A DNA stretch of 64,000 nucleotides, taken from the NCBI GenBank assembly GCA_965223545.1, contig OZ245006.1, forward strand, positions 7,392,001 through 7,456,000, in the 5' to 3' direction. This DNA comes from Planctomycetota bacterium (lineage in GTDB: Bacteria > Planctomycetota > UBA1135 > UBA2386). Each line of letters starts with the position of its first letter. The stretch's first letter is position 1. Made by a program: the position numbers and the translations under genes. Under the pieces are notes generated by a model, which made no database searches, was not told the DNA's origin, and worked only from the letters and a program-made list of their open reading frames with translations. Positions 24,057-59,929 of this stretch are shown piece by piece.

Positions 24057-24063
24057 GGCGGGG

Positions 24064-40443: not shown

Positions 40444-42690
40444 ATGACCACGCGCCTCGCTCTCGTCATCGGTGCGGCCACCGCCGCAATCACCGTTTCC
40501 GGTTCGGCCCTCGCGCAGGATTGGCTGCGCTGGCGCGGTCCCGACCAGGCTGGCACCAGCCACGAAACCGAGCTGCCCGCGGCGCTGGCGCTGGACGGCG
40601 ACGGGGCGTGGAGCCTGGCCGTGCGCGGGCGGGGCACTCCGGTGGTGCACGGCGACCGCCTGTTCGCGATGGGCTACCGCGGCGAGGGGTTCGACGCGCA
40701 CGAGCTGTTGATGTGCGTCGACGTGGCGAGCGGCGCGATCGTCTGGGAGCACGACCTCACCGACTTTCTCAGCGACGTGGTCTACACCCGGTACGCGATC
40801 GGCAGCCCGACGGTCGATCCCGAGACCGGGCTGGTCTACTGCCTGTCCACGCCGGGCCTGCTGAGCTGCTTCACGCCGGATGGTGCGCTGCGTTGGCAGC
40901 ACTCGATGATGGAGGAGTACGGCCGCTGGACCTTTCCCAACGGCCGCACCGGGGCACCGCTGATCGAGGGGGATCTCGTGGTCGTCCACGTGGCGACCAG
41001 CAACTGGGGGCCGATGGGGCCGACGCGGGATCGGTTCTACGCCTTCGACAAGGCCGACGGCACCTCGGTGTGGAGCTGTACCCCGGGCGGACCGCCGAAG
41101 GATGGGTCGTTTTCGTTTCCGGTAGTGGCCGACGTCGAGGGCCGGCGGGTGCTGTACGCCGGCCTGGCGGGCGGGCATCTGGTGTGCGTCGATGTGCGCA
41201 CCGGCCAACCTCTGTGGCGCTTTCAGATGTCGATCGGCGGCATGTCCTCGAGCCCGCTGCTGTTCGGCGACACGGTGATCGCGATCCACGGCAAGGAGAA
41301 CGTCGACGACTCGACGATCGGGCGGATGGTGGCGCTGCGCCGCGGCGGCCTGCCGGCGCCCGGCGAGCCGGCGCAGGTGCGGGGCCTCGAGGCGGAGGTC
41401 TGGCGCAACGATCTGGTCGCGTTCACCAGCTCGCCGGTGCTGATCGGCGAACGGGTCTACGTCACGGTGGCCACCGGCGAGCTGTGCTGCGTCGACGCAA
41501 CGGACGGCACGGTGTTGTGGCAGGAGAAGCTGGCGCCCGACCAGATCCACGCCTCGCCGGTGTGGGCGGACGGCAAGCTCTACGTGCCGATGACCAACGG
41601 CTCGTTGCACGTCGTGCGGCCGAGCGATGGTGGTCCCGAGGTGCTGCAGAGTCTGCAGCTCGAGGGCAGCTGTCTGGGGGCGCCGGCGATCGCCGGTGGT
41701 CGGGTGTTCGTGCACACGACCGAGAAGCTGTACTGCCTGACCGGTGAGCCCGCGCCCGGTGCCGCCGGGCACGCGGCGGGGTGGCCGCCGACGCCACTGC
41801 AGCCGCAGGCTGGCGAGCCGGCGCAGCTACAGGTGCGCCCCGCCGATCTCGTCGTCGAGCAGGGCGAGTCGTTCGCGGTGCGCGTCGATCTGCTCGATGC
41901 CGCCGGCCGGCCCGTGCAGCGCGGCGTCGATGGAGTTGAGCTGCGCACCGAGGTCGAAGGAGTGCAGATGACGAGCGGCGGTGGCGCGGGCCGGATCGAG
42001 GTCGCCGCCGACGCGCCGCCGGCGGCGCGCGTACTGACCTTCGCGGCGGCCGAGCGCGAGGCCGGCATGCGCCTGCGCGTCGTGCCGCGGCTGCCGTTCG
42101 CCGACGACTTCGAGGACGCCGCGTTGCAGGCCGACGCCGCCGGCGTCCGTCGCGGCCCGGCGCGCCCGTGGTGGGTGGTGGCGGGGCCGCGCTGGGAGAT
42201 CGTCGAGTTCGAGGGCAATCAAGTGCTTGGCCGCACCCTGGTCAACCCGCTGTTCCAGCGCACCTGGAGCATGATCGGCCACCCGCGGCAGTCGAACTAC
42301 ACCGCCGCGATCGACGTCTACCTCGACGGCAACCGCCGCACGCTGGCCAGCGGCGGGCTGATCAACCAGCGCTACTTGTTCGCGCTGATGGGCAACTACC
42401 AGGAGCTGTGGGTGACCTCCAACGAGGAGTCGCTGCGCCAGGTGGTGCCGATCGAGCTCAAGGCCAAGACGTGGTACCGGCTCGTGACTCGGGTCGATCT
42501 CGACGCGGACGGTGGCGCCATGCTGCGCGCCAAGGCTTGGCCCCGCGACGGCGAAGAGCCATCGGCGTGGACCTTGGAGGTGCCGCACGCCGTCGCCCAC
42601 CGGCACGGCTCGCCCGGCCTGTACGGCTTCACTCCGCAGAACCGATTCACTTGCTACTTCGACAACCTGACCGTGACCCCCAATGAGTGA
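40444..42690 (+). CDS. Secreted PQQ-like beta-propeller with C-terminal beta-sandwich/lectin-like domain
   Basis: Signal peptide, QDWLRWRGP, blade repeats; C-terminus RAKAWPRDGEEP..W..GSPGLYG..YFDNLTV. Start may be 40432. Confidence 0.85.
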   Translation: MTTRLALVIGAATAAITVSGSALAQDWLRWRGPDQAGTSHETELPAALALDGDGAWSLAVRGRGTPVVHGDRLFAMGYRGEGFDAHELLMCVDVASGAIVWEHDLTDFLSDVVYTRYAIGSPTVDPETGLVYCLSTPGLLSCFTPDGALRWQHSMMEEYGRWTFPNGRTGAPLIEGDLVVVHVATSNWGPMGPTRDRFYAFDKADGTSVWSCTPGGPPKDGSFSFPVVADVEGRRVLYAGLAGGHLVCVDVRTGQPLWRFQMSIGGMSSSPLLFGDTVIAIHGKENVDDSTIGRMVALRRGGLPAPGEPAQVRGLEAEVWRNDLVAFTSSPVLIGERVYVTVATGELCCVDATDGTVLWQEKLAPDQIHASPVWADGKLYVPMTNGSLHVVRPSDGGPEVLQSLQLEGSCLGAPAIAGGRVFVHTTEKLYCLTGEPAPGAAGHAAGWPPTPLQPQAGEPAQLQVRPADLVVEQGESFAVRVDLLDAAGRPVQRGVDGVELRTEVEGVQMTSGGGAGRIEVAADAPPAARVLTFAAAEREAGMRLRVVPRLPFADDFEDAALQADAAGVRRGPARPWWVVAGPRWEIVEFEGNQVLGRTLVNPLFQRTWSMIGHPRQSNYTAAIDVYLDGNRRTLASGGLINQRYLFALMGNYQELWVTSNEESLRQVVPIELKAKTWYRLVTRVDLDADGGAMLRAKAWPRDGEEPSAWTLEVPHAVAHRHGSPGLYGFTPQNRFTCYFDNLTVTPNE

Positions 42691-44227
42691 ACTCACCCTT
42701 TCCGGCGCGTTGGCCGCCCTCGTGTGCAGTGCAGTTCTTGCCGTGACGCCGACGGTCGCGGCGCAGAGCGATTGGCCGGCGTGGGGGCGCGACGCGTCGC
42801 GCAACATGGTCGCCGACGTCGAGGGATTGCCGCACACCTTCGAGGCCGGCAAGTTCATCGGCGACAGCGAAGACATCGACATGGCGACCACGCGCAACAT
42901 CAAGTGGATCGCCAAGCTGGGCTCGCAGAGCTACGGCAACCCGACCGTGGCCGGCGGCCGGGTGTTCGTCGGCACCAACAACGACGTGCCGCGCGATCCG
43001 CGCTTCGTCGGGGACCGCAGCTGCGTCTACTGCTTCGACGAGGAAACCGGCGAGTTCCTGTGGCAGCTCAACGTGCCCAAGCTCGGCACCGGCAAGGTCA
43101 GCGACTGGGAGTTCTTGGGCATCTGCTCGTCGCCGGCAGTCGAGGGGGATCGCGTCTATTTGGTGACCAACCGGTGCGAGGTGATGTGTCTCGACGTGAA
43201 CGGGATGGCCGACGGCAACGACGGCCCGTTCAAAGGCGAGGGCCAGTACATGGCCGGCCCGGGCGCGGAACCCATGGAGGTCACCGCCACCGATGCCGAC
43301 ATCATCTGGGCGACCAACATGATCGACGAGTGCGGTGTGTTTCCGCACAACATCACCAGCTGCTCGGTGATGGTGGTCGGTGACCAGGTGTGGACCGCGA
43401 CCTCCAACGGCGTGGACTACGGTCACGTGACGACGCCGGCGCCGAACGCGCCGTGCTTGATCGTGGTCGACAAGAACACCGGTGCGCTGCTCGGCGAGGA
43501 GTCTTCGGGTCTGAGCCGGCGCATCTTCCACAGCAACTGGTCGTCGCCGGCGTTCTTGGAGACCGAGGACACCCGGCTGGTGATCTTTGGTGGACCGGAT
43601 GGCGTGGTCTACGCGTTCAAGCCCGAGCCGGTGCCCGAGGACGACTTCAACGTGCTGGAGCTGGCCTGGCAGTTCGACGCCAATCCACCCGAGTACCGGA
43701 TGCGCGATGGTGAGCCCATCAAGTACGCGACCCGCAAGGGGCCCAGCGAAGTGCTGGCCACGCCGGTGGTCCACGAGGGCAGGGTCTACGCCTTGATCGG
43801 TCAGGACCCCGAGCACGGCGAGGGGGTGGGCAACATGGTTTGTCTGGACGCGGCGGGCAACGAGGTGTGGTCGTATCGCAAGATCCACCGCTCGCTGTCG
43901 ACGCTGTCGGTGCACGATGGCCTGGTGTTCGCCGCGGACTACTCGGGCTTCCTGTACTGTTTGGACGCCGACACCGGTGAGGAGAAGTGGGTGCACGACA
44001 CCGCCGCGCACATCTGGGGATCCACGCTGGTCGCCGACGGCCGCGTGTTCGTCGGCACCGAGGACGGGTTCCTGGTCGCGCTGCCGGCGACTGCCGAGTA
44101 CGACGAAGGCAAGGTGCAGGAGTTCGACTTCAGCGCGGCGCAGATCTACAGCTCCCCGATCGCCGCCAACGGCGTGCTCTACCTCGCCACCCACACCCAC
44201 CTCTACGCCATCGCCGAGGTCGAGTAG
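42683..44227 (+). CDS. Secreted PQQ-like beta-propeller (acidic, Cys-rich)
   Basis: DWPAWGRDASRN, YGNPTVAGGRVFVGTNN, blade repeats. Overlaps the previous gene. Confidence 0.88.
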   Translation: MSELTLSGALAALVCSAVLAVTPTVAAQSDWPAWGRDASRNMVADVEGLPHTFEAGKFIGDSEDIDMATTRNIKWIAKLGSQSYGNPTVAGGRVFVGTNNDVPRDPRFVGDRSCVYCFDEETGEFLWQLNVPKLGTGKVSDWEFLGICSSPAVEGDRVYLVTNRCEVMCLDVNGMADGNDGPFKGEGQYMAGPGAEPMEVTATDADIIWATNMIDECGVFPHNITSCSVMVVGDQVWTATSNGVDYGHVTTPAPNAPCLIVVDKNTGALLGEESSGLSRRIFHSNWSSPAFLETEDTRLVIFGGPDGVVYAFKPEPVPEDDFNVLELAWQFDANPPEYRMRDGEPIKYATRKGPSEVLATPVVHEGRVYALIGQDPEHGEGVGNMVCLDAAGNEVWSYRKIHRSLSTLSVHDGLVFAADYSGFLYCLDADTGEEKWVHDTAAHIWGSTLVADGRVFVGTEDGFLVALPATAEYDEGKVQEFDFSAAQIYSSPIAANGVLYLATHTHLYAIAEVE

Positions 44228-44230
44228 TCC

Positions 44231-44539
44231 TTGGCGCCCGACGGAGCGGACCGGGTGGCGCGCGCGCCGCTGAGCGGCAAGGGGCGACTCGCGTGGGGGC
44301 TGGTCGTGTTGCTGGCGATCGTGCACTACGACTTTTGGTACTGGGGTGACGAGACGGCCGTGTTCGGCTTCATTCCGATCGGACTGTTCTTCCACGCGCT
44401 GATCTCGCTCGCGGCCGGCTGCGTCTGGGCGATGGTGGTCGCGTGGGCCTGGCCGTCGTGGATCGAGGCCTGGGCCGCCGGTGACGTCGGCAGCGCTGCG
44501 GACGGCGACCCCGCGGGCGACCCGCGGGGCGGGGAGTAG
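44231..44539 (+). CDS. DUF3311-like small membrane protein (symporter accessory)
   Basis: Two TM helices, HYDFWYW, FGFIPIG; directly upstream of the SSS symporter. Start uncertain. Confidence 0.7.
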   Translation: MAPDGADRVARAPLSGKGRLAWGLVVLLAIVHYDFWYWGDETAVFGFIPIGLFFHALISLAAGCVWAMVVAWAWPSWIEAWAAGDVGSAADGDPAGDPRGGE

Positions 44540-44542
44540 CGC

Positions 44543-46126
44543 ATGCTGGCCGCTGCCGACCTGTCGGCGCTCTACGTGATCGCGGGCTACGTCAGCCTGC
44601 TGCTGCTGTTCGCGGTGGCGACGCAGGTGCGGGCGCGGCGGAGCAGCGCGGATTACTTCGTCGCCGGGCGATCGATCGGGCCGTTCCTGCTGCTGATGAG
44701 CGTGTTCGGCACCACGATGACCGCGTTCGCGCTGGTGGGGTCCACCGGCAAGGCGTTCGAGAGCGGCATCGGCGTCTACGGCTTGATGGCGTCGACCTCG
44801 GGCATCGTGCACTCGCTGGTGTTCTTCGCCGTCGGCATTCGGCTGTGGGCGATCGGCAAGCGCTACGGCTACGTCACCCAGATCCAGTTCTTTCGCGCGC
44901 GGTTCGCCAGCGACGGCCTGGGGACGCTGTTGTTCCCGATCCTGGTCGCGCTGGTGATCCCGTACCTGCTGATCGGGCTGCTCGGCGCGGGCTCGGTGCT
45001 GCGCGGAATCACCGTCGGCATGTTCCCCGACACGTTTGCCGGGGTCACGCTGCCCAGCGGCGAGACGCGGTTCGCGGGCGCGGTGCCGCCGTGGCTGACC
45101 GGCTTGCTCGTCTGTCTGGTGGTGCTGTCCTACATCATCACCGGCGGCGTGCGCGCCGCGGCGATGGCCAACGCCTGCCAGACCTGCGTGTTCATGGCGG
45201 TCGGCGTGCTCGCCTTCGTCTTGATCTCCGACTCGCTCGGCGGCGTGGTCGCCGCCACCGAGAAGGTGCGGGAAGTCGCGCCGGAGCTGCTGACGCGCAC
45301 CGAAACCATCGGCCATCTCCAGTTCTTGAGCTACGCGTTCGTGCCGCTGTCGGTCGGCATGTTTCCGCACCTGTTCCAGCATTGGTTGACGGCGCGCAGC
45401 GCGAAGACGTTCCGCACCACGGTGATCGCGCATCCGATCTTCATCGCCATCGTCTGGGTGCCCTGCGTGCTGATCGGGATCTGGGCGGCGGGCGCCGGCA
45501 TCCAAGCGCCGGGCGGCAACTCCAACGCGGTGCTGGCGGCGATGGTGTCGCGCCAGCTGCACAACGAGTGGATCACCGGTCTGCTGACCGCGGGTATCCT
45601 GGCGGCGATCATGTCGTCGCTGGACTCGCAGTTCGTCTGTCTGGGCACGATCTTCACGCACGACATCGTCGTGCACCACGCCGGCGAGGAGCGCTTCAGC
45701 GACCGGCAGAAGGTGCTGCTGGGCCGTATGTTCATCTTCGGCATCGTCGCCGTCACCTACGTGCTGTCGCTGTTCCCGCCGCCGAGCATCTTCGATCTGG
45801 CGGTCTGGTGCTTCAGCGGCTTCGCCAGCCTGTTCCCGCTGGTGTTTGCCGCGATCTACTGGCGACGGGCGACGCGCGCCGGCGCCATCGCCTCGGTGTT
45901 GGCGGCGGCGGGGACGTGGCTGTGGTTGTTCTACGACGGCTTGGTGGTGCCGACCATGGCCGGTGAGCGCTTGGAGGGGGACTACCTCGTGATGGGCATG
46001 ATGCCGGTCGCGGTGATGTTCGCGGCCTCGGCCAGTGCGCTGGTCGTCGTCAGTCTGCTCACCACGCCGCCGCCGCCGTCGGTGGTGGAGCGCTTCTTCG
46101 ACCTGCCCGAGCGCAAGGAGGCGTGA
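44543..46126 (+). CDS. Sodium:solute symporter (SSS family)
   Basis: DYFVAGRSIG, GGVRA, LAAIMSSLDSQ, YWRRATRAGA; about 13 TM helices. Confidence 0.93.
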   Translation: MLAAADLSALYVIAGYVSLLLLFAVATQVRARRSSADYFVAGRSIGPFLLLMSVFGTTMTAFALVGSTGKAFESGIGVYGLMASTSGIVHSLVFFAVGIRLWAIGKRYGYVTQIQFFRARFASDGLGTLLFPILVALVIPYLLIGLLGAGSVLRGITVGMFPDTFAGVTLPSGETRFAGAVPPWLTGLLVCLVVLSYIITGGVRAAAMANACQTCVFMAVGVLAFVLISDSLGGVVAATEKVREVAPELLTRTETIGHLQFLSYAFVPLSVGMFPHLFQHWLTARSAKTFRTTVIAHPIFIAIVWVPCVLIGIWAAGAGIQAPGGNSNAVLAAMVSRQLHNEWITGLLTAGILAAIMSSLDSQFVCLGTIFTHDIVVHHAGEERFSDRQKVLLGRMFIFGIVAVTYVLSLFPPPSIFDLAVWCFSGFASLFPLVFAAIYWRRATRAGAIASVLAAAGTWLWLFYDGLVVPTMAGERLEGDYLVMGMMPVAVMFAASASALVVVSLLTTPPPPSVVERFFDLPERKEA

Positions 46127-47202
46127 TGAGTGCGGTTTCCGACACGGCGGTCAGCGAGGCGCGCGAGGCCCTGGACGCGCATCTGCGCGAGATCGTGCAG
46201 TGGCACTTCTCGCTCGAGACCGGCACGCCGTACTGGCTCGACTGGGCGCGGCAGCACGGCTTCGACCCTGGCGCGATCAGCGGCGTGCAGGATCTGACGC
46301 TGCTGCCGCACTTCGACGGCGAGCTGCTGCGCACCGAGCCGCACGAGCGCTTCGTGCCAAGCGCCTACGCCGGCTGGCCGTTCACCATCTTCGAGACCGG
46401 CGGCACCACCGGCCTGCCAAAGCAGCGCATCGGCTGGGAGGACTACAAGCACGACTACGAGCAGTTCTCCGCCACCCTCGACGACCGCCACTTTCCGCAC
46501 GGCGGCTACTGGTTGATGATCGGCCCGACCGGCCCGCGACGGCTGCGGCTGGCGATCGAGCACCTGGCCAACTTCCGCGGGTCGTCGTGCTACTTCGTCG
46601 ATCTCGATCCGCGTTGGGTCAAGAAGCTGATCGCCAACCGCGAGTTCGGTCAGGCCAAGGCCTACATGGCGCACGTCATCGACCAAGCGGTTGCGATCCT
46701 GCGCAAGCGCTCGGTTTCAGTGCTCTTCACCACACCGAAGTTGCTCGAGGAGCTCGGTGAGCGCCTGTCGATTCCCGACGCGGGCGTCGTCGGCGTGTTC
46801 TGCGGCGGCACGACGATGACGCCACAGACGACGCGCTTTCTGATCGAAGAGGTGCTCGAGAACCGCGTCGGCTTCGTGCCCACCTACGGCAACACGTTGA
46901 TGGGCCTGGCCGCGCACAAGAAGTCGCTGGTCGAGGACCGCTACTCGATCACCTACTACGCGCCGCAACCCCGCGCGATACTGCGCGTCGTCGACCCCGA
47001 CAACACCGACCGCGAGGTCGACTACGACCAGTGGGGGCGCGTCGAGCTGACGACGCTGACCCACGAGCTGTTCCTGCCGCGGTTCTTGGAGCGGGACGAG
47101 GCCCTGCGCCGCCGGCCGTGCGCGGATTACCCCTGGGACGGGGTCGGCGAAGTGCGACCGTTCGCCTCGCAGGCCGAGGCGATCGTCGAGGGGGTCTATT
47201 GA
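46126..47202 (+). CDS. EhpF-like adenylating enzyme (atypical ANL / PaaK-LuxE-like)
   Basis: WHFSLETGTPYW, ETGGTTGLPK, DLDPRWVK, TTP, GGT, YGNT, ERD and terminal EGVY match motifs recalled from Pantoea EhpF. Confidence 0.8.
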   Translation: MSAVSDTAVSEAREALDAHLREIVQWHFSLETGTPYWLDWARQHGFDPGAISGVQDLTLLPHFDGELLRTEPHERFVPSAYAGWPFTIFETGGTTGLPKQRIGWEDYKHDYEQFSATLDDRHFPHGGYWLMIGPTGPRRLRLAIEHLANFRGSSCYFVDLDPRWVKKLIANREFGQAKAYMAHVIDQAVAILRKRSVSVLFTTPKLLEELGERLSIPDAGVVGVFCGGTTMTPQTTRFLIEEVLENRVGFVPTYGNTLMGLAAHKKSLVEDRYSITYYAPQPRAILRVVDPDNTDREVDYDQWGRVELTTLTHELFLPRFLERDEALRRRPCADYPWDGVGEVRPFASQAEAIVEGVY

Positions 47203-47272
47203 GCGTCGTTGTTCGAGAACTCGAGGTCGGCCAAGAGGCCGACCTTCGCGTCCTTCGTGCTGGCATGTTTCC

Positions 47273-48754
47273 ATGTCCGAGACCCCGCCCAGCGTCGTCG
47301 AGGGGTGTCCGGTGAGCGGCGTGCTGCACATTCCGATTCTGCGCGCCGGCGTGGAGTACGAGAGTCTGGAGCAGGTCGAGGTCAAGAGCCACCGCGACGG
47401 CCGGGTGATGGCGCGCGTGAGTCAGGCCAACGCCGGGATGGTGCGGCGCGATCTGCGCAGCTGCGAGGAGCGCACGGCTCCGCTGCGCGCGATGCCGATG
47501 GCGCAGCTGCTGTCGATCTGCAAGGCCGCCGGTGAGCTGTTCTTGCGCGGCTCGTTGCCGCTCAGCGACGACGGGCCGGCGCTCTCGGCCGACGAGTTCG
47601 TAGCACTGCTGAGCCACACCAGCGGGCTGCCGCACAGCCTGTGCCGGCGCAACATGCAGAAGGTGTTCTCGGTGTTCGACGAGATGCCGACGATTCTGCG
47701 CGGCTTGACGCGCGGCATGGATCCGGGCGTGATCGACGCCGCCGAGGGTGAGCACTTGGGCATCCCGCTGTGCTACGGCAGCACCACGCCGGTGCTCGGG
47801 GTCGTGCTGCCGAGCAACTCCCCCGGCGTCAACTCGATCTGGATTCCGGCGCTGGCGCTGAAGACGGCGGTGGTGCTCAAGCCGGGCCGCGACGAGCCGT
47901 GGACGCCGGCGCGCATCGCGCGCGCGTTCTTCGCCGCCGGCCTGCCGCGCTGTGCGTTCAGCGTGTATCCCACCGACCACGAGGGCTCGGCGGCGATCCT
48001 CGATCGCTGTGGCCGGTCGCTGTTGTTCGGCGACGAGTCTGTGACCAAGATCTACGCCGGCGATCCCCGCGTGCAGATCCACGGACCGGGCCGCAGCAAG
48101 GTGTTGATCGGCGATGACGCCATCGAGGACTGGCCGGCGCTGCTCGATGTGCTCGTGGCGTCGGTGGCCGACAACGGCGGACGCAGCTGCATCAACGCCT
48201 CGTCCATCTTCGTGCCGCGGCACGGCGACGCGGTGGCGGCCGCGCTCGCCGAGCGTTTGGCGGGAATCGAGCCGCGCCCCGCCGACGACCCCGAGGCCCG
48301 GCTGTCGGCGTTCGCCAAGCCTGCCGTGTGCGCGGCGATCGACGGCGCCATCGAGCGGGGCCTGGCGGCGGGCGGTGCCGAAGACGTCACCCAGCGGGTG
48401 CGCGGCACACCGCGCGCGTGCGCGATCGGCGACAGCCATTTCCTGCGGCCGACCGTGGTGCGCTGCGCCGGTCTCGACCACCCGCTGGCGCGCACCGAGT
48501 ACCTGTTCCCGTTCTGCAGTGTCGTCGAGGTGCCGGCGGATCGTATGGCGGAGCGGATCGGGCCGAGCCTGGTGGTGACCGCGATCACCCGCGACCGGGC
48601 GCTGATCGATCAGCTGGTGCGCTCGCCGCACGTCGACCGGCTCAATCTCGGGCCGGTGCCCACCTCGGTCGTCGAGTGGGATCAACCGCACGAGGGCAAT
48701 CTGTTCGAGCTGTTGTACGAACGACGCGCGTTCCAGCGTGCCGAGGGGTGGTGA
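47273..48754 (+). CDS. Aldehyde dehydrogenase-superfamily protein (EhpG/LuxC-like acyl reductase)
   Basis: LPSNSP, LKP, catalytic Cys in DNGGRSCINAS, EYLFP; HGPGRSK sits where ELGGK normally is. Confidence 0.82.
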   Translation: MSETPPSVVEGCPVSGVLHIPILRAGVEYESLEQVEVKSHRDGRVMARVSQANAGMVRRDLRSCEERTAPLRAMPMAQLLSICKAAGELFLRGSLPLSDDGPALSADEFVALLSHTSGLPHSLCRRNMQKVFSVFDEMPTILRGLTRGMDPGVIDAAEGEHLGIPLCYGSTTPVLGVVLPSNSPGVNSIWIPALALKTAVVLKPGRDEPWTPARIARAFFAAGLPRCAFSVYPTDHEGSAAILDRCGRSLLFGDESVTKIYAGDPRVQIHGPGRSKVLIGDDAIEDWPALLDVLVASVADNGGRSCINASSIFVPRHGDAVAAALAERLAGIEPRPADDPEARLSAFAKPAVCAAIDGAIERGLAAGGAEDVTQRVRGTPRACAIGDSHFLRPTVVRCAGLDHPLARTEYLFPFCSVVEVPADRMAERIGPSLVVTAITRDRALIDQLVRSPHVDRLNLGPVPTSVVEWDQPHEGNLFELLYERRAFQRAEGW

Positions 48755-49908
48755 CCGACGGCACCGGTGCCCCGCAGCGCGCGTTCGAGTGCAGCGTGCG
48801 CACGCGCATCGTGTTCGGCGCCGGCGTCGCCGGTTCGACGGGAGCGCTGGCGGCGGAGTGCGGCGGCCGCCGTGCACTGCTGGTGACCGATGCGGGCGTC
48901 GTCGGTGCCGGCCACGCCGCGCGAGTGGCCGATGCGCTGGTCGCCGCGGGGCTCGAGGTGCGCCAGTTCGACGCGGTGCGCGAGAACCCCTCCACGGTGG
49001 ATGCGGAGGCGTGTGCCGAGGCGATGCGCGCCGCACCCGTCGACATCGTCGTCGCGGTGGGCGGCGGCAGCGCGATCGACGCGGCCAAGGCCGGTGCCCT
49101 GCTCGCCGCCGGCGGGGGCACGGTGGAGGACTACTGGGGGGTCGGCAAGGCGCGGGGAACCGTCGCGCCGCTGATCGCGGTGCCGACCACCGCGGGCACC
49201 GGCAGCGAGGTGCAGTCCTTCGCTCTGATCAGCCAACCCGACACCCACCAAAAGATGGCGTGCGGCGATCCGCAGCTGGCGCCGCGGGTGGCGGTGCTCG
49301 ATCCACGGCTCACCTGCAGCATGCCGGCCAGCGTGACCGCCTGCACCGGCATGGACGCGATCGGGCACGCGGTCGAGACCGCGGTGACCGCGCGGCGCAA
49401 CCCCGCCTCCGCGCTGTTCGCGCGGGGTGCATTCGAGCTGCTCAACGAGGGCCTGCCGCGCGCGCTGACCGATCCCGACGACCTCGACGCCCGCGGCGCG
49501 ATGCTGCTCGGTGCGACCTGGGCGGGCCTCGCGATCGAGCACAGCATGCTCGGCGCGGCGCACGCGTTGGCCAATCCGCTGACCGCGCACCACGGCCTGA
49601 CCCACGGCCAGGCGGTGGGGACGGTGTTGCCGGCGGTGGTCCGCCACAACGCGCGCGAGCCGCAGGTCGCGGCGCTCTACGCCGCGCTGGCCGCGCGCGG
49701 CGGCTTGCCGGCGAGCGCCGCGGCGCTCGCCGACCGCCTCGACGCGTTGATCGCGCTGGTCGGCTGGCCGGCTTCGCTCCGCGCACACGGCGTCGTGCCG
49801 AGCACCGCCCTCGCCGCCGAGGCCGCGCGGCAGTGGACCGCACAGTTCAATCCGATCCCGGTGGCGCAAGAGGATCTGCTGGCGATGCTGCGGGCCAGCT
49901 GCGGCTGA
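48751..49908 (+). CDS. Iron-containing alcohol dehydrogenase
   Basis: ENP, GGGSAIDAAK, VPTTAGTGSE, metal ligands DAIGHAVE, HALA, HG. Confidence 0.93.
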   Translation: MTDGTGAPQRAFECSVRTRIVFGAGVAGSTGALAAECGGRRALLVTDAGVVGAGHAARVADALVAAGLEVRQFDAVRENPSTVDAEACAEAMRAAPVDIVVAVGGGSAIDAAKAGALLAAGGGTVEDYWGVGKARGTVAPLIAVPTTAGTGSEVQSFALISQPDTHQKMACGDPQLAPRVAVLDPRLTCSMPASVTACTGMDAIGHAVETAVTARRNPASALFARGAFELLNEGLPRALTDPDDLDARGAMLLGATWAGLAIEHSMLGAAHALANPLTAHHGLTHGQAVGTVLPAVVRHNAREPQVAALYAALAARGGLPASAAALADRLDALIALVGWPASLRAHGVVPSTALAAEAARQWTAQFNPIPVAQEDLLAMLRASCG

Positions 49909-49925
49909 GCTGCGGCCGCCGAGAA

Positions 49926-50891
49926 TCAGTCGAACGCGCGGGCCAGCGCGTCGCCGACGTCGTCTCCGCCGCTGGCAGCGCGCCGCGCGACCGCTGCTTC
50001 GGCCTCGGCCCGGGCGGCCGGGTCGAGCGTCAACCCCTCGATCGCGAGCTCGGCGTCGGCGCGCGGCGCGCTGCCGAGCAGCTCGAGCAGGTGGGCGCGC
50101 GCCGGCGCGGCGCGCAGCATGCCCAAGCTCAAGATGGCGGTACGGCGCGTGTGCGGGTCGCGCGCGCGCGCACTCAGCTCGATCAAGTCCGGGCAGGCGG
50201 CGGCGCAGCGTGCCTCGCCGATCGCCAGCGCGGCGGCCTGCTGCAGCGAGCTCCGCCGCAAGGCGTCGCGCACCACGTCGAGGGCCGCCTCGCCGTCGAC
50301 CTGCAGCAGCGCCGCCAGCACCTCGCCAATGACCTGGGGCTCCGCGTCGCGCCGCCAATACGCGTAGCGTAACAGGGGGGCTGCGGTGTCGGCGGTGAGC
50401 AGGCCGATGGCGCGCGCCGCGCCGACGCGGGCGACCGGCTCCGGGTCGGCCAGCAGATCGGCCAGCAGCCGGGGCGCGTCCACGTGGCCATCGCCGGCGA
50501 GCGCGAGGCCGCACGCCGCCCGCAGCTGTGCGGCGGTGTCGACCGACCCGCCGAACGAGGGCTCGATCTGGCGATGGCGGATGCCGCGCAGCAGCGCGGT
50601 TTCGGCGATTCCTCCGCTGCGCGCGAGGGCGTGGGCGAGGGCGGTCTTGCCGGCGCAGCCCGGATCGCTGGCCGCGTCGGCGTCGAGCAGGGCGAGCAGG
50701 CGCTCGTTCATCGCCGGCGCGTGGCCCGGCAGGTCGAGCTCCTCGATCAGCGAGGCCGCCTTGGCGACCACGTGATTGCTCTTGTGCACCAGCGCCGTCG
50801 CCAGCAGCGCCTGGCTGTCTTCGGCGAGGGGATCGCCGCGCACGGCGTTGAGGCCGCGCAGGGCGTCCTCGGTGGTGGCGCGCCGCGGCAT
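49926..50891 (-). CDS. HEAT-repeat protein
   Basis: Ala/Leu helical repeats (LLADPEPVARVGAARAIG), DPGCAGK. Confidence 0.7.
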   Translation of the reverse strand: MPRRATTEDALRGLNAVRGDPLAEDSQALLATALVHKSNHVVAKAASLIEELDLPGHAPAMNERLLALLDADAASDPGCAGKTALAHALARSGGIAETALLRGIRHRQIEPSFGGSVDTAAQLRAACGLALAGDGHVDAPRLLADLLADPEPVARVGAARAIGLLTADTAAPLLRYAYWRRDAEPQVIGEVLAALLQVDGEAALDVVRDALRRSSLQQAAALAIGEARCAAACPDLIELSARARDPHTRRTAILSLGMLRAAPARAHLLELLGSAPRADAELAIEGLTLDPAARAEAEAAVARRAASGGDDVGDALARAFD

Positions 50892-50965
50892 GGGGCCCCA
50901 CGGTAGGGGAGTCCGCGGCGCCGGGCAAAACGGCGGTCGCCACGGGCGGCGCCGCGCCGTAGACA

Positions 50966-51868
50966 ATGCTGCCGATGTCGCTCCGCTCTGCCGCCCCTCC
51001 GTTCGCCGCCCTCGCCGTGCTGCTGTGGGCGCAAGATCCCGCCGGTGCACCGACCCTGGCCCCTGGCGGCGCGTTCTTGACGATGGCCGATCGTCCGCTG
51101 GCGCGGTTGCGCGGCGGCGACATCGACACCGCGCTGTACGCAACCTACGTCACTGCCGTAGTGGGGGACCGCCACCTCGCCGACCTGGCGTTCGATCTGG
51201 CTCTGGCGCGCGAGTGCGCGGCGCGCGGGCTCGCGCGCACCGCGCCGGTGCTGGCGCGGTCGGCGGCAGTGCGCCGCCAGCACGAGCTCGGCCGCGATGT
51301 CGGCGATCACTGGCAGCGGTGCGTGTTCGCCAACGAGGCGCTGCGCGACCAGCGCGTCGAGGCGCTGGTCCGCGCTGATCGGCGGATCGACCCCGCCGAG
51401 GTGCAGGCCTTGTTCGAGCGTCGCTACGGCCCCGGCGGTGTGCGCGTGCGCGCGCGACACCTGCTGGTCGGCTTCGCCGGCGTGCAGCGCGCGCTGCGCG
51501 CCACCGGCGCCGAAGCGACCGAGACCGCTGTCGACGAGGCCGCCCGCGCCCGCGCCGCGGCCGAGCGGCTGCGTTGGCAGGAGGGCGCGGTGCCTTCCGC
51601 GGCGAAGCTCCTGGACGCCGGCCTGCTGCGGCGCTTCGGCGCCGCGGTGGGCGAAGTCCTGCAGCAGACCCCGGTGGGCGAGGTTTCGGCGCCGGTGCGC
51701 GGACGCCGCGGCTACCACCTGGTCGAAGTCCTCGGCCGCGAGCGCACCGCGCTCGCCGACGTCGAGGCCGCGCTGCGGGCGGAGCTGCGCGCGTCCAAGC
51801 CGTCGCCGGTCGAGGTGCGCCAGCTGCGCCAACGCCTGCTGTCCGAGTATGGTTTCGAGCCGAGATGA
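50966..51868 (+). CDS. PpiC/parvulin-type peptidyl-prolyl isomerase-like exported protein
   Basis: VRARHLLV and GEVSAPVRGRRGYHLVEV rotamase motifs. Start may be 50975. Confidence 0.75.
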   Translation: MLPMSLRSAAPPFAALAVLLWAQDPAGAPTLAPGGAFLTMADRPLARLRGGDIDTALYATYVTAVVGDRHLADLAFDLALARECAARGLARTAPVLARSAAVRRQHELGRDVGDHWQRCVFANEALRDQRVEALVRADRRIDPAEVQALFERRYGPGGVRVRARHLLVGFAGVQRALRATGAEATETAVDEAARARAAAERLRWQEGAVPSAAKLLDAGLLRRFGAAVGEVLQQTPVGEVSAPVRGRRGYHLVEVLGRERTALADVEAALRAELRASKPSPVEVRQLRQRLLSEYGFEPR

Positions 51869-53013
51869 ACGTTCCCCTGATGGTGGGCGCGGGCCGTTGC
51901 CTGGCGCTGTCGTTGGCCGTCGCCGCCCCGGCGCAGGACACGGTCGGCCGCGAGGACGCGGCCGTCTACCGCGGCGACGCGCAGCTGCGCGGTGTCGCGC
52001 CGGGTCGACTCCAGCTGCCACTCGAGCTGCGCTGGCGGTTCGTCACCGAGGGACCGGTGGTGTCGTCTCCGGTGGTGCACGGCGGGATGGTCTACTTCGG
52101 CTCGAGCGACGGCAACGTGTACGCCGTCGACGCCAAGAGCGGTCAGCGCGTGTGGGCGTTCGCCAGCGAGGACATCGTCGATGCGCCGCCCCTGGTGCTC
52201 GACGGCCGCGTCTTCGTCGGCTCGTCGGACTTCTTCTTCTACGCTTTGGACGCCCGCACCGGTGCGCTGAGCTGGAAGTACGAGACCGGCGACAAGATCC
52301 TCGGCAGCGCCAATTGGGTCCGGCTGAAGGACGGTGAAACCCGCGTGCTGGTCGGCAGCTACGACGGCGCGCTGTACGCCTTCGACGCCGCCAGCGGCGC
52401 GCTGCGGTTTCGCTACGAGACCTCCAACTCGCTGAACGGCACGCCGGCGATGGTCGGCGAGGACGCCGTGTTCGGTGGTTGCGACGCGATTCTGCACGCG
52501 GTGTCCGCCCGCACCGGCGCGGCGCGCAGTCAGCTGGAGATCGGTCAGGAGTGCCACATCGCGGGCTCGGTCGCGACCGACGGCGAGACGGTCTACTTCG
52601 GTCACTACGGCAACGCCTTCGTCGCGGTCGCGCTGGATGCGGAGCAACCCGCATGGGTGTATCCCAGCGAGCGCCACGCGTTCTTCTCGTCGCCGGCGAT
52701 CGGTGAAGACCGAATCGTGTTCGGCGGGCGAGACCGTCGCGTGCACTGCGTGCGCCGCGCGGACGGCGAGCCGCTGTGGACCTTCACCACCCGGCGCAAG
52801 GTGGACTCCTCGCCGGTGATCTGCGGCGAGGTGGTCGCCGTGGGCTCCGGCGACGGGCGGTTGTACGTGCTCGGCCTGGCCGACGGCGAGAAGCGCTGGG
52901 AGTACGATCTCGGCCGGCCGGTGATGTCGTCGCCGGCGATCGTCGACGGCTGGCTGTACATCGGCTGCAACGACGGCGCGCTGTACGCGTTCGCACCCGC
53001 GGAGCAGAGCTGA
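51865..53013 (+). CDS. Secreted PQQ-like/BamB-like beta-propeller
   Basis: Regular SSP...VYFGSSDGNVYAVD..G..W blades. ATGA overlap. Confidence 0.9.
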   Translation: MNVPLMVGAGRCLALSLAVAAPAQDTVGREDAAVYRGDAQLRGVAPGRLQLPLELRWRFVTEGPVVSSPVVHGGMVYFGSSDGNVYAVDAKSGQRVWAFASEDIVDAPPLVLDGRVFVGSSDFFFYALDARTGALSWKYETGDKILGSANWVRLKDGETRVLVGSYDGALYAFDAASGALRFRYETSNSLNGTPAMVGEDAVFGGCDAILHAVSARTGAARSQLEIGQECHIAGSVATDGETVYFGHYGNAFVAVALDAEQPAWVYPSERHAFFSSPAIGEDRIVFGGRDRRVHCVRRADGEPLWTFTTRRKVDSSPVICGEVVAVGSGDGRLYVLGLADGEKRWEYDLGRPVMSSPAIVDGWLYIGCNDGALYAFAPAEQS

Positions 53014-53027
53014 GACGGGCGCCGAGC

Positions 53028-54323
53028 ATGCGCTTCTTGATGTTGATCCCCGGCACGGGGCACTACTACTGCGGGAGCTGCCTGCGCGACGACGCCCTCG
53101 CCTCCGCGCTGCGCGAAGCCGGCCATGACGTCGACGTCGCGCCGCTGTACCTGCCGATGGTGTTGGAGCGGCCGGACGGCGAGCCTGCCGTGCAGATGGG
53201 AGGCATCAACGTCTACCTCCAGCAGCGCACCAGGTTGTTCCGCCGGCTGCCGCGTTGGATGACGCGGCCGCTGGACCACCCGCGCCTGCTGCGCTGGGCG
53301 TCGCGCCGTGGCGACATGACGGATGCGCGCTCGCTGGGCGAGCTGACGCTCGGTGTGCTGCTGGGAGAGACCGGGCCGCAGCGAGCGTCGGTCGATGCCC
53401 TGCTGCGCTGGGTCGCCGAGCAGCCGCGTCCCGATGTCGTGGTCTTGTCGAACGCGATGCTGATCGGGCTCGCCGCGCCGATCAAGCGCACTCTGCAGCG
53501 ACCGGTGGTGGTCACCCTGCAGGGTGAGCTGCCGTTCCTCGACTCCTTGCCGCAGCCGTACCGCGATCAGGCCTGGGGGGCGTTGGCGGCGGCGGTTTCC
53601 GGCGTCGATCGGCTGGTCGCGGTCAGCGGTGCCTACCGCGATGCGATGGCCGCCCGCTTGGGACTGCGGCGCGACGACATCGCGGTCGTGCACAACGGCA
53701 TCGACACCGCGGACTTCGCGGCGGCGCCGCCGCGCCTGGTCGAGCGGCAGCCGCCGACGGTCGGCTATCTGGCGCGGCTGTCGCGCGACAAGGGGCTGGC
53801 GGACCTGGTCGACGCGTTCATCGTCTTGGCCAAGCGCGGTCGCGTGCCCGGCGTGCGCCTGTTGACGGTGGGCGTCGAGCTCGCCGAGGACCGTGCTCTG
53901 TGGCGTGAGGTGCGGTCGCGGCTGGCGCGCGCCGGCCTCGCCGATGCCGTCGAACGCGTTGCCAACGCGAGCCGTGACGAGAAGCTGCGGCACTTGGCCC
54001 GCATGTCGGTGCTGTCTGTGCCCGCGACCTACGGGGAGTCGTTCGGGCTGTATCTGCTCGAGGCCGCGGCGGCGGGCGTGCCGGTCGTGCAGCCACAGGA
54101 TCGCGTGTTCGCCGAGCTGATCGAGGCGACCGGCGGAGGAGTGCTGTGCGAGCCGGGCAATGCGACTGCGCTGGCGTTGGCACTCGAGGATCTGTTGCTC
54201 GACGCCGAGCGCGCCCAGCGGTTGGCGGACGCGGGCCGGAGTGCTGTGTTGGCGCGGTTCTCGGCGAAACAGATGGCCAGCGCGTTCGAGCGTACCACTA
54301 GGATGATCGCGACCACGGTCTGA
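53028..54323 (+). CDS. Glycosyltransferase family 4 (GT-B) with N-terminal CGSC motif
   Basis: VHNGID, YLARL...KG, ESFGLYLLEA..GVPVV; N-terminal YYCGSCLRD. Confidence 0.9.
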   Translation: MRFLMLIPGTGHYYCGSCLRDDALASALREAGHDVDVAPLYLPMVLERPDGEPAVQMGGINVYLQQRTRLFRRLPRWMTRPLDHPRLLRWASRRGDMTDARSLGELTLGVLLGETGPQRASVDALLRWVAEQPRPDVVVLSNAMLIGLAAPIKRTLQRPVVVTLQGELPFLDSLPQPYRDQAWGALAAAVSGVDRLVAVSGAYRDAMAARLGLRRDDIAVVHNGIDTADFAAAPPRLVERQPPTVGYLARLSRDKGLADLVDAFIVLAKRGRVPGVRLLTVGVELAEDRALWREVRSRLARAGLADAVERVANASRDEKLRHLARMSVLSVPATYGESFGLYLLEAAAAGVPVVQPQDRVFAELIEATGGGVLCEPGNATALALALEDLLLDAERAQRLADAGRSAVLARFSAKQMASAFERTTRMIATTV

Positions 54324-54369
54324 CGCGGGGCCGCTCGCTCCGCGCCAACTGCCTCGAGCCAGACTGCAA

Positions 54370-54912
54370 ATGCCCGAACCCGCTGCCTCGCCACCGCTGT
54401 GGATGATCTACGCCCTGACCACCGTCGCCACCTGGGGGCTGTACGGGGTGTTCTTGCACACCGGACAGCTGGGAATGGGGGATCCCGCGCACGGTCGCTA
54501 CAAGGCGTTCTTGTGGGTGGGGATCGCCTACTTCCTGACCGCGGTGCTGGCGCCGGCCATCGTGCTGTGGCTCGGCGGCGCCAGCTGGACGATGCCGCCG
54601 AAGGCAATCGGTTGGTCGCTGTTCGCCGGCGTGCTCGGCGCGGTCGGCGCGTTCGGCGTTCTGCTCGCGTTCGGTGCGCGGGGCCAGCCGGCGGTGGTGA
54701 TGTCGATCGTGTTCGCCGGAGCGCCGATCGTCAACGCGATCGCCAGCATCGCCATGCATCCCCCGGCCGGCGGTCTCGGCGGTGTGCGCTGGCAGTTCTT
54801 CGCCGGCATCCTGCTGGCGGCGGTCGGCGGCACGCTGGTGACTCTCTACAAGCCGACCCCCGGAGGGCCCAAGCCCGGCGCGGCGGCGCAGCCCGTGGTC
54901 GAGCCCCGGTGA
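54370..54912 (+). CDS. Small multi-TM membrane protein (DMT/EamA-like)
   Basis: About 5 TM helices, WGLYG, GAPIVN. Confidence 0.65.
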   Translation: MPEPAASPPLWMIYALTTVATWGLYGVFLHTGQLGMGDPAHGRYKAFLWVGIAYFLTAVLAPAIVLWLGGASWTMPPKAIGWSLFAGVLGAVGAFGVLLAFGARGQPAVVMSIVFAGAPIVNAIASIAMHPPAGGLGGVRWQFFAGILLAAVGGTLVTLYKPTPGGPKPGAAAQPVVEPR

Positions 54913-55622
54913 GCCACGACGCCGGCGTGCCCGCGGTGCGCGCCGCGGGGGTGGTGGTGCGCTATCCATCGCCTGGCGCTGAGTCGGCGGATGCCGTCCT
55001 GCGCGGCGTCGATCTCACCGTCCAGCGCGGCGAGTCGGTCGCCGTGGTCGGCCCGTCCGGCTGCGGCAAGAGCACGCTGTTGCACGTGCTGGGTGGTTTG
55101 CTGCCGCCGCAGGAGGGCGTCGTCGAGGTCGACGGGCAGCCGCTCGCCGACCGCGACGCGGCGGAGCTCGCCGCGTTGCGCCGGCGCTCGGTCGGTTTCG
55201 TCTTCCAAGAGCACCATCTGCTGCCGCAGTGCAGTGCTCTGGAGAACGTGTTGGTCCCGCTGCTGGCCGAGCAGTCGCGGGTCCCGCCGGAAGCCATCGA
55301 CCGCGGTCGCGCGCTGCTCGCGCAGGTCGGGCTCTCGGCGCGCGAGACGCACCGGCCCAGCGAGCTCTCGGGCGGCGAGTGCCAGCGCGTGGCGGTCGTG
55401 CGCGCACTGATGGCGCGGCCGGCGTTGTTGCTCGCCGACGAACCCACCGGTTCGCTGGACGAAGCCGGCGCCGAAGCCTTGGCGGAGGTGATCATCGCAC
55501 TGGTGCAGACGGCCGGCGCCGGTCTGGTCACGGTGACCCATTCGCCGCTGCTGGCCGGCCGCATGCAGCGCACGCTGCGGCTGCACGGCGGCGTGTTGGC
55601 GGCGGCGACCGCGTCGTCATGA
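54909..55622 (+). CDS. ABC transporter ATP-binding protein (LolD/MacB-like)
   Basis: GPSGCGKST, GFVFQ, LSGGECQR, LADEPTG, VTH. Confidence 0.94.
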   Translation: MSHDAGVPAVRAAGVVVRYPSPGAESADAVLRGVDLTVQRGESVAVVGPSGCGKSTLLHVLGGLLPPQEGVVEVDGQPLADRDAAELAALRRRSVGFVFQEHHLLPQCSALENVLVPLLAEQSRVPPEAIDRGRALLAQVGLSARETHRPSELSGGECQRVAVVRALMARPALLLADEPTGSLDEAGAEALAEVIIALVQTAGAGLVTVTHSPLLAGRMQRTLRLHGGVLAAATASS

Positions 55623-58600: not shown

Positions 58601-58942
58601 GGTGGGCTCGGCTTGTTGTTGGGCTCGGTCGGCCTCGGCGCCGTCGTGCTGCGCAACGCCGCCGAGCGCCGCGGCGAGCTGGCGGCGCTGCGCGCGCTGG
58701 GCTTCACTCCGGGCCTGTTGCACCGCCTGTTGTGGATGGAGCACGGCGCGCTGCTGGCGGTCGGGCTCGTGTGCGGCGCGGTGAGCGCTTTGGTCGCGGT
58801 CGCTGGCAGTCCCGAGGCGCGGGGGTGGCGCGATTTGCTGTGGGTGTTGCCGGCGCTGGCGGCGAGCGGCGCGCTCTGGGTCGGCTGGGCGGGGTGGCGC
58901 GCCGGGCGCGGTGAGCTCAACGCCGCGCTCCGCGGCGACTGA
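55619..58942 (+). CDS. Large FtsX/MacB-type ABC permease (about 1107 aa, duplicated architecture)
   Basis: LTGALAVGDS, EQRWRELGTLMAVGF, ERRGELAALRALGF; two large periplasmic domains. Confidence 0.88.
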   Translation: MKRGTLIARGLRHYWNAHRWVLCGVACTAAVLTGALAVGDSVRKSLALQVHWRTGGVRAAMHAMDRRVRPALADAMQAGLGEGAVVAPVLHLPGVATPPGGGVTGLVEVLGVDARFGALAPGPTMRRGTPADGKAWINEAAAAQLGVAVGDVLVVRVEAPSPVPRDAAVATYDDVSFGLRVDVDGILSAGDFGRFDLRSNPLPTFSVVVGLEWLCAQLELEPGANTLLAGGDPDAVGDAARLDKALAEHWTLADAGLELVTLESGVAELRSGRLFIDQALVDAVGAVVPGAVGVLTYFVNALRHGEAVTPYSTVAGIGALGDPAAVEDPVLRELLALAPGPDALTLNQWCASDLGAGLGSEIELDFTVADTVAGLRSAHRVLRVGGVTELSGAAADATLMPPFPGLGDAASCRDWEPGLPVELARLRPKDERYWELHRGTPKAFVALETARAMWASRFGSLSAVRLPAARAAELARALPRSVAPAAIGLYFTDVASAGRVASAPTTDFAGLFGGMSGFTIIAAVLLTALLFVFSVEQRWRELGTLMAVGFAPAGVRRLLLGEALVIAVLGGLLGAGLGLLYTRAVLWALGSVWSGAVGGVALEFDCRPVSLAAGAGGAVLVAMVALYWSTRRAFATPVVALLRRRAAVARAGAATVARVVAPLAALAAVGLWVAAPATGTDAALWRFAAGALLLVGALAAVRLSLGGGGESARPAASRWALAWRNAARRPVRSMTCVGLLAAGVFTVTAVQAFRQRPPEVADAASGTGGFALFGRSALPVLRDLGTPEGRDAYGLGAAALRGVDIVPLRVRDGDEASCLNLGSPAEPRLLGVDPEALAARGAFSFAAVDAALAGDDGDSPWRLLGQPLADGAIAAIGDAQSTQWSLHLGLGEQLLYRDDRGATVPVRLVGTLRSSILQGSLIVDESQLARAFPKTSGHRAFLIGVDGPAERVAAVRGDLSEAFADLGLELTPTAVRLAAFQAVQNTYLRIFLVLGGLGLLLGSVGLGAVVLRNAAERRGELAALRALGFTPGLLHRLLWMEHGALLAVGLVCGAVSALVAVAGSPEARGWRDLLWVLPALAASGALWVGWAGWRAGRGELNAALRGD

Positions 58943-59886: not shown

Positions 59887-59929
59887 GGGGACACGGCGCG
59901 AGCGGTGAACGGTCGCGCCGGGCGGGCCG

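Follow-up and report, generated by a model that had tools for sequence, protein, structure and literature searches.

What might a planctomycete make with a locus in which secreted PQQ-like beta-propellers, a sodium:solute symporter, an acid-reduction module, a glycosyltransferase and an ATP-binding cassette (ABC) exporter stand side by side? Such a cluster occupies positions 40444-58942 of the window, a stretch of 64,000 nucleotides from a Planctomycetota bacterium (GenBank assembly GCA_965223545.1, contig OZ245006.1, positions 7,392,001 to 7,456,000). We conclude that it encodes a real and undescribed pathway assembled from known kinds of enzymes, and that it differs from phenazine, grixazone, aryl polyene, PQQ dehydrogenase and Bam loci. 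To a more specific proposal we give an even chance: an aryl acid, probably a hydroxybenzoate, would gain a C-methyl group, be halogenated or hydroxylated, and be reduced to an alcohol that is then glycosylated, exported and bound by the propellers. Every chemical step in it is read from enzyme family and context, around genes, an order, motifs, folds and a co-occurrence that were observed.

The cohesion of the cluster is seen best in its relatives. In a set of 120 neighbourhoods (40 cut from the genomes of the phylum sample described below, and the best 80 of 296 further matches), gene order is kept in records of Planctomycetota, Verrucomicrobiota, Armatimonadota and Omnitrophota, with cluster proteins 50-80% identical across the four phyla, and the closest named relatives of the EhpF-like adenylating enzyme belong to Planctomycetota. 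Among the 112 close-clade loci, of which only those with enough flank enter each denominator, the propellers P1 and P2 were each present in 65/87, the DUF3311 protein in 50/87, the symporter in 52/87, the partner of aldehyde dehydrogenase (ALDH) fold in 72/90, and the iron-containing alcohol dehydrogenase (Fe-ADH) in 68/90; the downstream genes were found less often (P3 22/76, GT4 19/76, DMT 17/76, LolD and FtsX 12/76 each). This association exceeds chance.

The extent of 40444-58942 given in the initial annotation proved correct as to its genes but incomplete, as four more genes lie 12 kb upstream, at 23619-28189: a thioesterase, a HemN-like radical S-adenosylmethionine (SAM) enzyme, a halogenase-like flavoprotein and a fourth propeller, P4 (Table 1). 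Clustering of the remaining open reading frames (ORFs) in the relatives' loci revealed five additional operon families, namely the HemN-like radical SAM enzyme, a CmlS-like flavoprotein, a chorismate-lyase-like protein, a 4HBT thioesterase and a PaaK-like ligase, which single operons of relatives join with the cluster genes and three of which occur in this window (23619-26778). The thioesterase, whose PDB matches include 4-hydroxybenzoyl-CoA thioesterases (E 6.7e-11), has counterparts in 18/120 loci. P4 stands beside the flavoprotein in genomes G157 and G074 as well, and its orthology rests on this comparison. In G157, from the same family as our genome, TonB receptor, P4, flavoprotein, radical SAM enzyme and thioesterase run straight into P1, so that the two arrangements differ by one inversion of about 23.6-40.2 kb. 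An assembly artefact at the upstream block was rejected, since contigs of runs X1 and X3 cross both junctions with no difference, although these contigs could derive from the source sample itself. Loci L075 and L081 carry the same TonB/P1 arrangement as this window, so that either order may be the original one.

Whole genomes gave a sharper picture than loci. We used one fixed draw of 201 Planctomycetota genomes and a second sample of 121 genomes from the class of G204, a class chosen because in the phylum of G201 an evenly drawn sample had yielded EhpF-like matches in only 2/111. At E 0.001 the EhpF-like query matched 56/201 genomes of the phylum sample, and the 39/201 that match at E < 1e-90 are called core genomes. 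The radical SAM gene is found in exactly the genomes with the EhpF-like gene, the same 39/201 in the phylum sample and the same 15/121 in the class sample. As the two genes are often far apart (for instance at 2.00 and 3.96 Mb in G070), physical linkage cannot explain this match. The flavoprotein, searched with a profile built from cluster members, is present in 38/39 core genomes and, as a weaker match, in 1/162 others; P2 in 39/39 and 5/162; and the chorismate-lyase-like gene in 25/39 and 0/162. GT4 is found in 38/39 core genomes and 18/162 others, and in the class sample in 15/15 and 10/106, which amounts to 56/201 and 25/121 genomes in total and to 53/54 core genomes over both samples. Co-occurrence elsewhere, on which the initial annotation had beforehand staked its proposal of a pathway, was thus borne out across fetched loci and genome samples. 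No characterised pathway matching the cluster was found in the literature covered, which mostly excludes subscription journals.

The initial annotation had also proposed an acid-to-alcohol module within an undescribed conserved pathway, and both family resemblance and conservation support it. The likeness to EhpF holds against the crystal structure (Table 1), and a quick tree sets the cluster's EhpF-like proteins apart as a clade (SH-aLRT 90), with plasmid relatives labelled "arylcarboxylate reductase" at 33-35% identity. As in split carboxylic acid reductases, a full-length EhpF-type adenylating enzyme is adjoined by an ALDH-fold partner that has the catalytic Cys and not the hydrolytic Glu: in the alignment Cys306 is kept in 72/72 sequences, and His270 occupies the usual Glu position in 72/72. 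In ALDH-fold enzymes the Cys is the catalytic nucleophile and the Glu serves hydrolysis, and Cys306 kept with Glu missing fits a putative reductase of an activated acyl group. ALDH-fold partners in a phenazine and a para-aminobenzoate (pABA) cluster likewise have no Glu, and relatives of the reductase pair sit in such phenazine and pABA clusters or are annotated as arylcarboxylate reductase. By sequence the pair looks like EhpF/EhpG and GriC/GriD, both of them split aryl-acid reductases. GriC/GriD convert 3-amino-4-hydroxybenzoic acid (3,4-AHBA) through the acyl-AMP to the aldehyde, according to the part of the source available (PMC10179220).

Two side observations concern this family. A distant EhpF-like clade (28-34% identity; L063-L070) occurs with an SDR-like reductase, a class III aminotransferase, an MMPL transporter, an alpha/beta hydrolase and a CxxCH protein, without an ALDH-like partner, and represents a different undescribed cluster. 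On a Streptomyces plasmid (L151, NZ_CP104318.1), an arylcarboxylate reductase lies among extra mqn genes and a nonribosomal peptide synthetase (NRPS), a context that suggests a naphthoate-derived product.

The radical SAM enzyme keeps CxxxCxxC in 25/25 sequences and shows the HemN-like fold of class C enzymes, which, in the accessible part of a published account, add one-carbon units to sp2 carbons, as NosN does with tethered indoles and MenK with menaquinone (PMC10114718). Against the NCBIfam models for HemN, HemW, HutW and HemZ it scores below every cut-off, so that it falls in no named family, the best scores, far below cut-off, being those of HutW, STM4012 and HemN; among plasmids it has no close relative at E 1e-40. 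A housekeeping role in heme synthesis was rejected, as 162/201 genomes have no match to this gene and this genome holds another HemN-like gene. In the flavoprotein, K71, W213, W215, I217 and P218 are invariant in 18/18 sequences, and the FAD motif, the Lys and WxWxIP are all in place; a quick tree puts the copy in this window, with Lys and WxWxI kept, among the cluster copies (SH-aLRT 95). Both the catalytic Lys and WxWxIP have roles in flavin-dependent halogenases. Of the NCBIfam models, CmlS (E 1e-52) scores better than QhpG (E 2.9e-43), both below cut-off.

Downstream, the GT4 and the LolD/FtsX-type exporter named in the initial annotation are confirmed as predictions by Pfam. The GT4 keeps C15 in 39/39, C18 in 37/39, E337 in 37/39 and E345 in 39/39 sequences, with CxxC in the first loop; its model (pLDDT 95.3) has a MshA/GlgM/BshA fold (MshA TMq 0.74), and the modelled GT-B fold with the E-x7-E donor motif places it among the retaining glycosyltransferases of family GT4. 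GT4, P3 and the ABC genes form a separable module of wider range than the aryl-acid enzymes: where GT4 occurs without the latter, P3 is kept and LolD/FtsX often so. In the GT4-only loci examined (17/18 in the Planctomycetota sample, 9/10 in the class sample), its neighbours are an SHC-like cyclase, polyprenyl synthase-DUF116, prenyltransferase-like and radical SAM genes, or genes of Fe-S electron transfer. Polyprenyl synthase-DUF116 is present in 30/39 core, 14/18 GT4-only and 8/144 other genomes; 52/56 GT4 genomes carry the aryl module, this gene or both, and two more have the cyclase beside GT4. In G074 and G200 the SHC-like gene lies inside the cluster itself. A merosterol-like meroterpenoid, with an aryl head and a terpenoid tail, was considered as the product; for this organism we set it aside, as the genome gave no SHC-like, prenyltransferase-like or polyprenyl synthase-DUF116 gene. 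The last is likewise not found in 9/39 core genomes, and a meroterpenoid could be the product in the 30 with both.

Two arrangements of the GT4-only type deserve mention in their own right. Loci L198-L201 and L205 hold an operon of a propeller, a GcvH-like protein (by eye), an Fe-S protein, a radical SAM enzyme, the SHC-like cyclase, polyprenyl synthase-DUF116, the CxxC-GT4 and a prenyltransferase-like gene. In eight Planctomycetota loci (L154, L156, L157, L159, L160, L163, L167 and L168), a fused NuoE/NuoF-like protein, ferredoxins, a 4Fe-4S membrane protein and an NHL-repeat protein suggest an electron-transfer context.

The propellers share with PQQ dehydrogenases and BamB the eight-bladed fold alone, being 12-24% identical to solved ones, and P1, P2 and P3 lie far below the cut-offs of TIGR03075, TIGR03300 and TIGR04528, hence are not members of the PQQ dehydrogenase or BamB families. 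P2 keeps the loop residues D141, W142, H222, N223, N242, H248, Q374, D375 and H378 in 75/75 sequences, and in G104 P1 and P2 are naturally fused in one frame of 1336 residues (L178:6388-10395). Propellers also seem more numerous where the modules occur. Among G001-G060, the median number of first-look P4 candidates per Mb, a loose proxy and not a copy number, was 6.6 in eight core genomes, 7.8 in six GT4-only genomes and 2.1 in the 46 with neither, and more than 5 per Mb were found in 12/14 module genomes versus 2/46. Matches to PF13360, counts that include the cluster's own propellers and come from cluster genomes that are larger, were higher in cluster-bearing members of 4/5 families compared: 36 and 26 versus 7 and 5 at E 1e-8 (family f1), and at E 1e-15 6 versus 0 (f5), 8 versus 1 (f14) and 5 versus 1 and 1 (f25); f15, at 13 versus 10, is the exception. 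G013, with neither module, has 10 such matches. The excess in GT4 genomes is a lead, not proof. A possible, if tentative, extension is that the cluster makes and exports a small-molecule ligand or cofactor for the expanded PQQ-like propellers of Planctomycetota and Verrucomicrobiota, CxxC-GT4, P3 and the ABC genes being a chassis shared by an aryl alcohol or an SHC-like terpenoid product. Directly downstream of the cluster in G157 (L210:1-13800), about nine further PQQ-like propellers follow.

How could these parts work together? The acid would be supplied by the chorismate-lyase-like protein in those 25/39 genomes that have it, and here by import through DUF3311 and the symporter, perhaps after passage of the TonB receptor. 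The HemN-like enzyme would place a one-carbon unit on a ring carbon and the flavoprotein would halogenate or hydroxylate, possibly on a thioester later freed by the thioesterase. The EhpF-like enzyme would then form the acyl-AMP, Cys306 of the ALDH-fold protein would take the acyl group and release the aldehyde, and the Fe-ADH would yield the alcohol, a reduction we infer from GriC/GriD and the missing catalytic Glu. GT4 may add a sugar and LolD/FtsX may export the product to the envelope, where binding by the secreted propellers P1 to P4 is predicted. That the acid is imported, that the alcohol is glycosylated and that propellers handle the product are ideas of the initial annotation, kept here as inferences.

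Several observations weigh against this pathway as drawn. The E < 1e-90 cut-off was placed, at a clear score gap, after inspection of the list; kin among the counted genomes are not independent; and in many Verrucomicrobiota loci the modules are unlinked. G203, whose completeness is not given, has the EhpF-like gene without a radical SAM match (4/5 in that comparison), and so do 17 further genomes with distant EhpF-like matches. This genome, which is 91% complete, yielded no chorismate-lyase-like gene and no PaaK orthologue, so that the source of the substrate and the thioester step are both less certain here; a Rv2949c-like Pfam family was not found in it either. The chorismate-lyase-like label is itself weak, with E 2.8e-5 to PDB 2nwi, which we take to be a UbiC-like fold, and a Pfam Chor_lyase match of E 0.034 in 1/10 members. 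The flavoprotein also matches the hydroxylases QhpG, LodB and GoxB, below cut-off. Finally, the acceptor of GT4 need not be an aryl alcohol, because the gene occurs in those 18/162 and 10/106 genomes without aryl-acid enzymes, often in a terpenoid module.

This last point leads to a rather unlikely alternative, in which two systems are linked but separate, the aryl enzymes releasing an unglycosylated aldehyde or alcohol while GT4, P3 and LolD/FtsX act on a lipid or terpenoid acceptor. GT4 is indeed frequently unlinked from the EhpF-like gene, lies between polyprenyl synthase-DUF116 and prenyltransferase-like genes in 5/9 GT4-only loci of the class of G204, and shares its genomes with polyprenyl synthase-DUF116 (44/56 versus 8/145 others). 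Yet it is kept here and in G157, G172, G136 and G190, where that synthase was not found, is nearly constant in core genomes, and forms part of the aryl-acid operon in L035-L043, L188, L189 and L209. The substrate could also be another ring acid (a naphthoate, a pyrrole or a piece of a tetrapyrrole), or the flavoprotein and radical SAM enzyme could mature a protein-bound quinone cofactor in P2 in the manner of QhpG or LodB. The NCBIfam scores of the radical SAM enzyme, the nearby TonB receptor, the arylcarboxylate reductase relative among mqn genes, the QhpG match and P2 with its invariant Trp142 and three His all speak for this; we nevertheless hold it unlikely, as those NCBIfam matches fall far below cut-off, halogenase structures score highest for the flavoprotein, the reductase, Fe-ADH, thioesterase and PaaK-like ligase point to a small molecule, and the chorismate-lyase-like gene is confined to core genomes.

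Plain uptake and detoxification or catabolism, which the initial annotation had offered beside biosynthesis, would mean that the cell takes up an aromatic acid, aldehyde or alcohol from its surroundings, converts one form into another, conjugates it and expels it. The symporter, the TonB receptor, the DMT-like protein and the ABC exporter fit such a route, and the chorismate-lyase-like gene was not found in this genome. However, we favour biosynthetic tailoring of an aromatic acid, because the radical SAM enzyme is obligate and the halogenase-like flavoprotein near-obligate, which are costly building steps; the ALDH-fold protein without the Glu of hydrolytic oxidation and the candidate synthesis gene of most core genomes also make uptake and detoxification quite improbable.

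Known systems set the aryl-acid pathway in relief. GriC/GriD of grixazone (Streptomyces griseus) and EhpF/EhpG of D-alanylgriseoluteic acid (Pantoea), in whose pathway EhpG reportedly acts, share with the cluster a short ANL enzyme followed by an ALDH-fold reductase without Glu. The cluster's proteins are about 30-38% identical to them, form a separate clade, are far more widespread, and are accompanied by Fe-ADH, radical SAM enzyme, flavoprotein, GT4, exporter and propellers; moreover, no phenazine core or 3,4-AHBA genes were found among the window ORFs or the families recurring in at least 4 of 120 loci, a search that leaves aside the rest of the genome. In mycobacteria, the p-hydroxybenzoic acid derivative (p-HBAD) and phenolic glycolipid pathways combine chorismate lyase, aryl-acid activation, glycosylation and envelope export with polyketide synthase (PKS) extension or methyl esters. 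The cluster instead reduces its putative acid, has no PKS, and differs from the p-HBAD pathway in its glycosyltransferase; neither a ketosynthase with acyl carrier protein nor a PKS, as in aryl polyene, flexirubin or phenolic glycolipid synthesis, occurred in scanned cluster ORFs or recurring neighbour families. PQQ and mycofactocin have loci for synthesis and transport alongside expanded client enzymes, and here too presence of a conserved locus goes with a larger family of candidate clients, whereas a precursor peptide or SPASM enzyme was not seen at the cluster.

Closer in organism is the baaA/baaB locus of Planctomycetales strain 10988, to which 3,5-dibromo-p-anisic acid is assigned in the accessible part of the report (10.1101/723874). 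As in many cluster relatives, a chorismate-lyase-like gene stands there beside a flavin halogenase; by its description, though, BaaB is about 44% similar to Bmp5, whereas the cluster flavoprotein is nearest CmlS, ChlB4 and PltA, the baa product keeps its acid, and that part of the report names no reductase, radical SAM enzyme, GT4 or exporter. For the SHC-like terpene cyclases of the Planctomycetes-Verrucomicrobia-Chlamydiae (PVC) bacteria, product and function are uncharacterised in the portions available of two reports (PMC7306690, PMC12324236); in the relatives the SHC-like gene, a presumed member of that clade, and polyprenyl synthase-DUF116 share the GT4/P3/ABC module. In transposon studies bearing on essentiality, the cluster terms do not appear in the main text on P. 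limnophila or in the supplements to PMC10632474 and PMC12283558, apart from one large table in each that may yet list these genes.

Table 1. Position and basis of the features discussed, numbered from the first letter of the window.
Feature	Position	Strand	Basis
4HBT-class (hot-dog) thioesterase	23619..24056	-	49% to cluster thioesterase of relatives
HemN-like (class C type) radical SAM enzyme	24064..25404	-	HemN E 5e-37, NocN E 1e-28
Flavin-dependent halogenase-like flavoprotein	25546..26778	+	PDB halogenases: 8zop E 3e-65, ChlB4, CmlS, PltA
P4, fourth PQQ-like beta-propeller	26804..28189	+	64-66% identity over 244 residues to G157 and G074 copies
TonB-dependent receptor, divergent from P1, loosely associated	38063..40216	-	Pfam barrel and plug
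P1, signal-peptide-like N-terminus, PQQ-like propeller, conserved C-terminal extension	40444..42690	+	PQQ_2 E 7.6e-31; conserved in 61 rows
P2, eight-bladed propeller	42683..44227	+	Model pLDDT 92.8; YxaL/BamB-type fold, Z about 35
DUF3311 small membrane protein	44231..44539, start may be 44255	+	Pfam E 9.6e-7, 29.2 bits, just under the cut-off of 30 bits
Sodium:solute symporter (SSS)	44543..46126	+	SSF E 7e-34; below every NCBIfam cut-off
EhpF/GriC-type adenylating enzyme	46123..47202	+	PDB EhpF (3l2k) E 5.8e-39, residues 19-358
EhpG/GriD-type ALDH-fold reductase	47273..48754	+	26%, E 2e-34, to ALDH after EhpF-like gene of phenazine cluster
Iron-containing alcohol dehydrogenase (Fe-ADH)	48751..49908	+	Fe-ADH E 4.5e-48
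HEAT-repeat gene, inserted in operon, outside conserved set	49926..50906, start approximate	-	HEAT_2 Pfam; unmatched in all fetched loci
PpiC-like exported protein, restricted to close kin	50966..51868	+	Rotamase_2 E 8e-7; 5 loci
P3, PQQ-like propeller of GT4/ABC module	51865..53013	+	PQQ_2 E 7.6e-48; adjoins GT4 or radical SAM gene in most loci
GT4 glycosyltransferase with N-terminal CxxC	53028..54323	+	Motif conservation and model fold
DMT-like membrane protein	54370..54912	+	ESM Atlas 0.98 to clusters auto-named DMT permease
LolD-like ABC ATPase	54909..55622	+	ABC_tran E 2.4e-34; best NCBIfam LolD, below cut-off
Doubled FtsX-type ABC permease, 1107 aa	55619..58942	+	Two FtsX stretches; travels with GT4

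As to layout, all ORFs of the initial annotation were recovered on the + strand in the cluster's 13 genes, and Pfam agrees with it on PQQ_2 in three propellers, SSF, Aldedh, Fe-ADH, Rotamase_2, GT4, ABC_tran and FtsX; the AMP-binding match of the EhpF-like protein is weak, and the DMT-like label, carried by the ESM Atlas, finds no Pfam or NCBIfam match. The tight coupling described is real in five 4-nt ATGA/GTGA overlaps, beside which stand one 8-nt overlap and gaps of 3, 3, 14, 46 and 70 nt. The two + strand runs (40444-49908 and 50966-58942) are likewise present, but instead of separate units they are probably one operon interrupted by the - strand HEAT-repeat gene, because that gene is unmatched in fetched loci and Fe-ADH runs straight into PpiC in G157. 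The TonB receptor adjoins the cluster in L040, L075, L081, G157 and L206, and in 4 loci a major facilitator superfamily (MFS) gene lies directly upstream of the EhpF-like gene. Across 20-64 kb of the window, Rfam gave no riboswitch match with an E-value up to 1. An inverted match of 31 nt (74%) between the upstream regions of the radical SAM gene and P1, one of 272 pairs, was treated as chance, because it is not evident by eye in five relatives. Inside the inverted block, 28231-33794 (- strand) and 33500-37027 (+ strand) hold two large repeat proteins of FG-GAP/VCBS appearance and then an ECF-type sigma factor, both labels read by eye, with a tetratricopeptide-repeat Ser/Thr kinase. Beyond the cluster, 59032-62192 (+) holds a DUF4388 protein, with no match in fetched loci, a TrmB-like methyltransferase, a Rieske ferredoxin and a YciI-like protein, and the ORF at 62332-63402 (+) reads as transposase-like.

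With the present list of genes, enzymes and knockouts can be tested directly. With no PKS, NRPS or terpene core, and with a presence in four phyla and in about one fifth of the sampled Planctomycetota, the cluster looks like basic physiology rather than a niche antibiotic. It connects the PQQ-like propellers of PVC bacteria with a large unassigned HemN-like family and with the uncharacterised SHC-like cyclases, and its near-obligate halogenase-like enzyme would make an organohalogen a common natural product of soil and aquatic bacteria.

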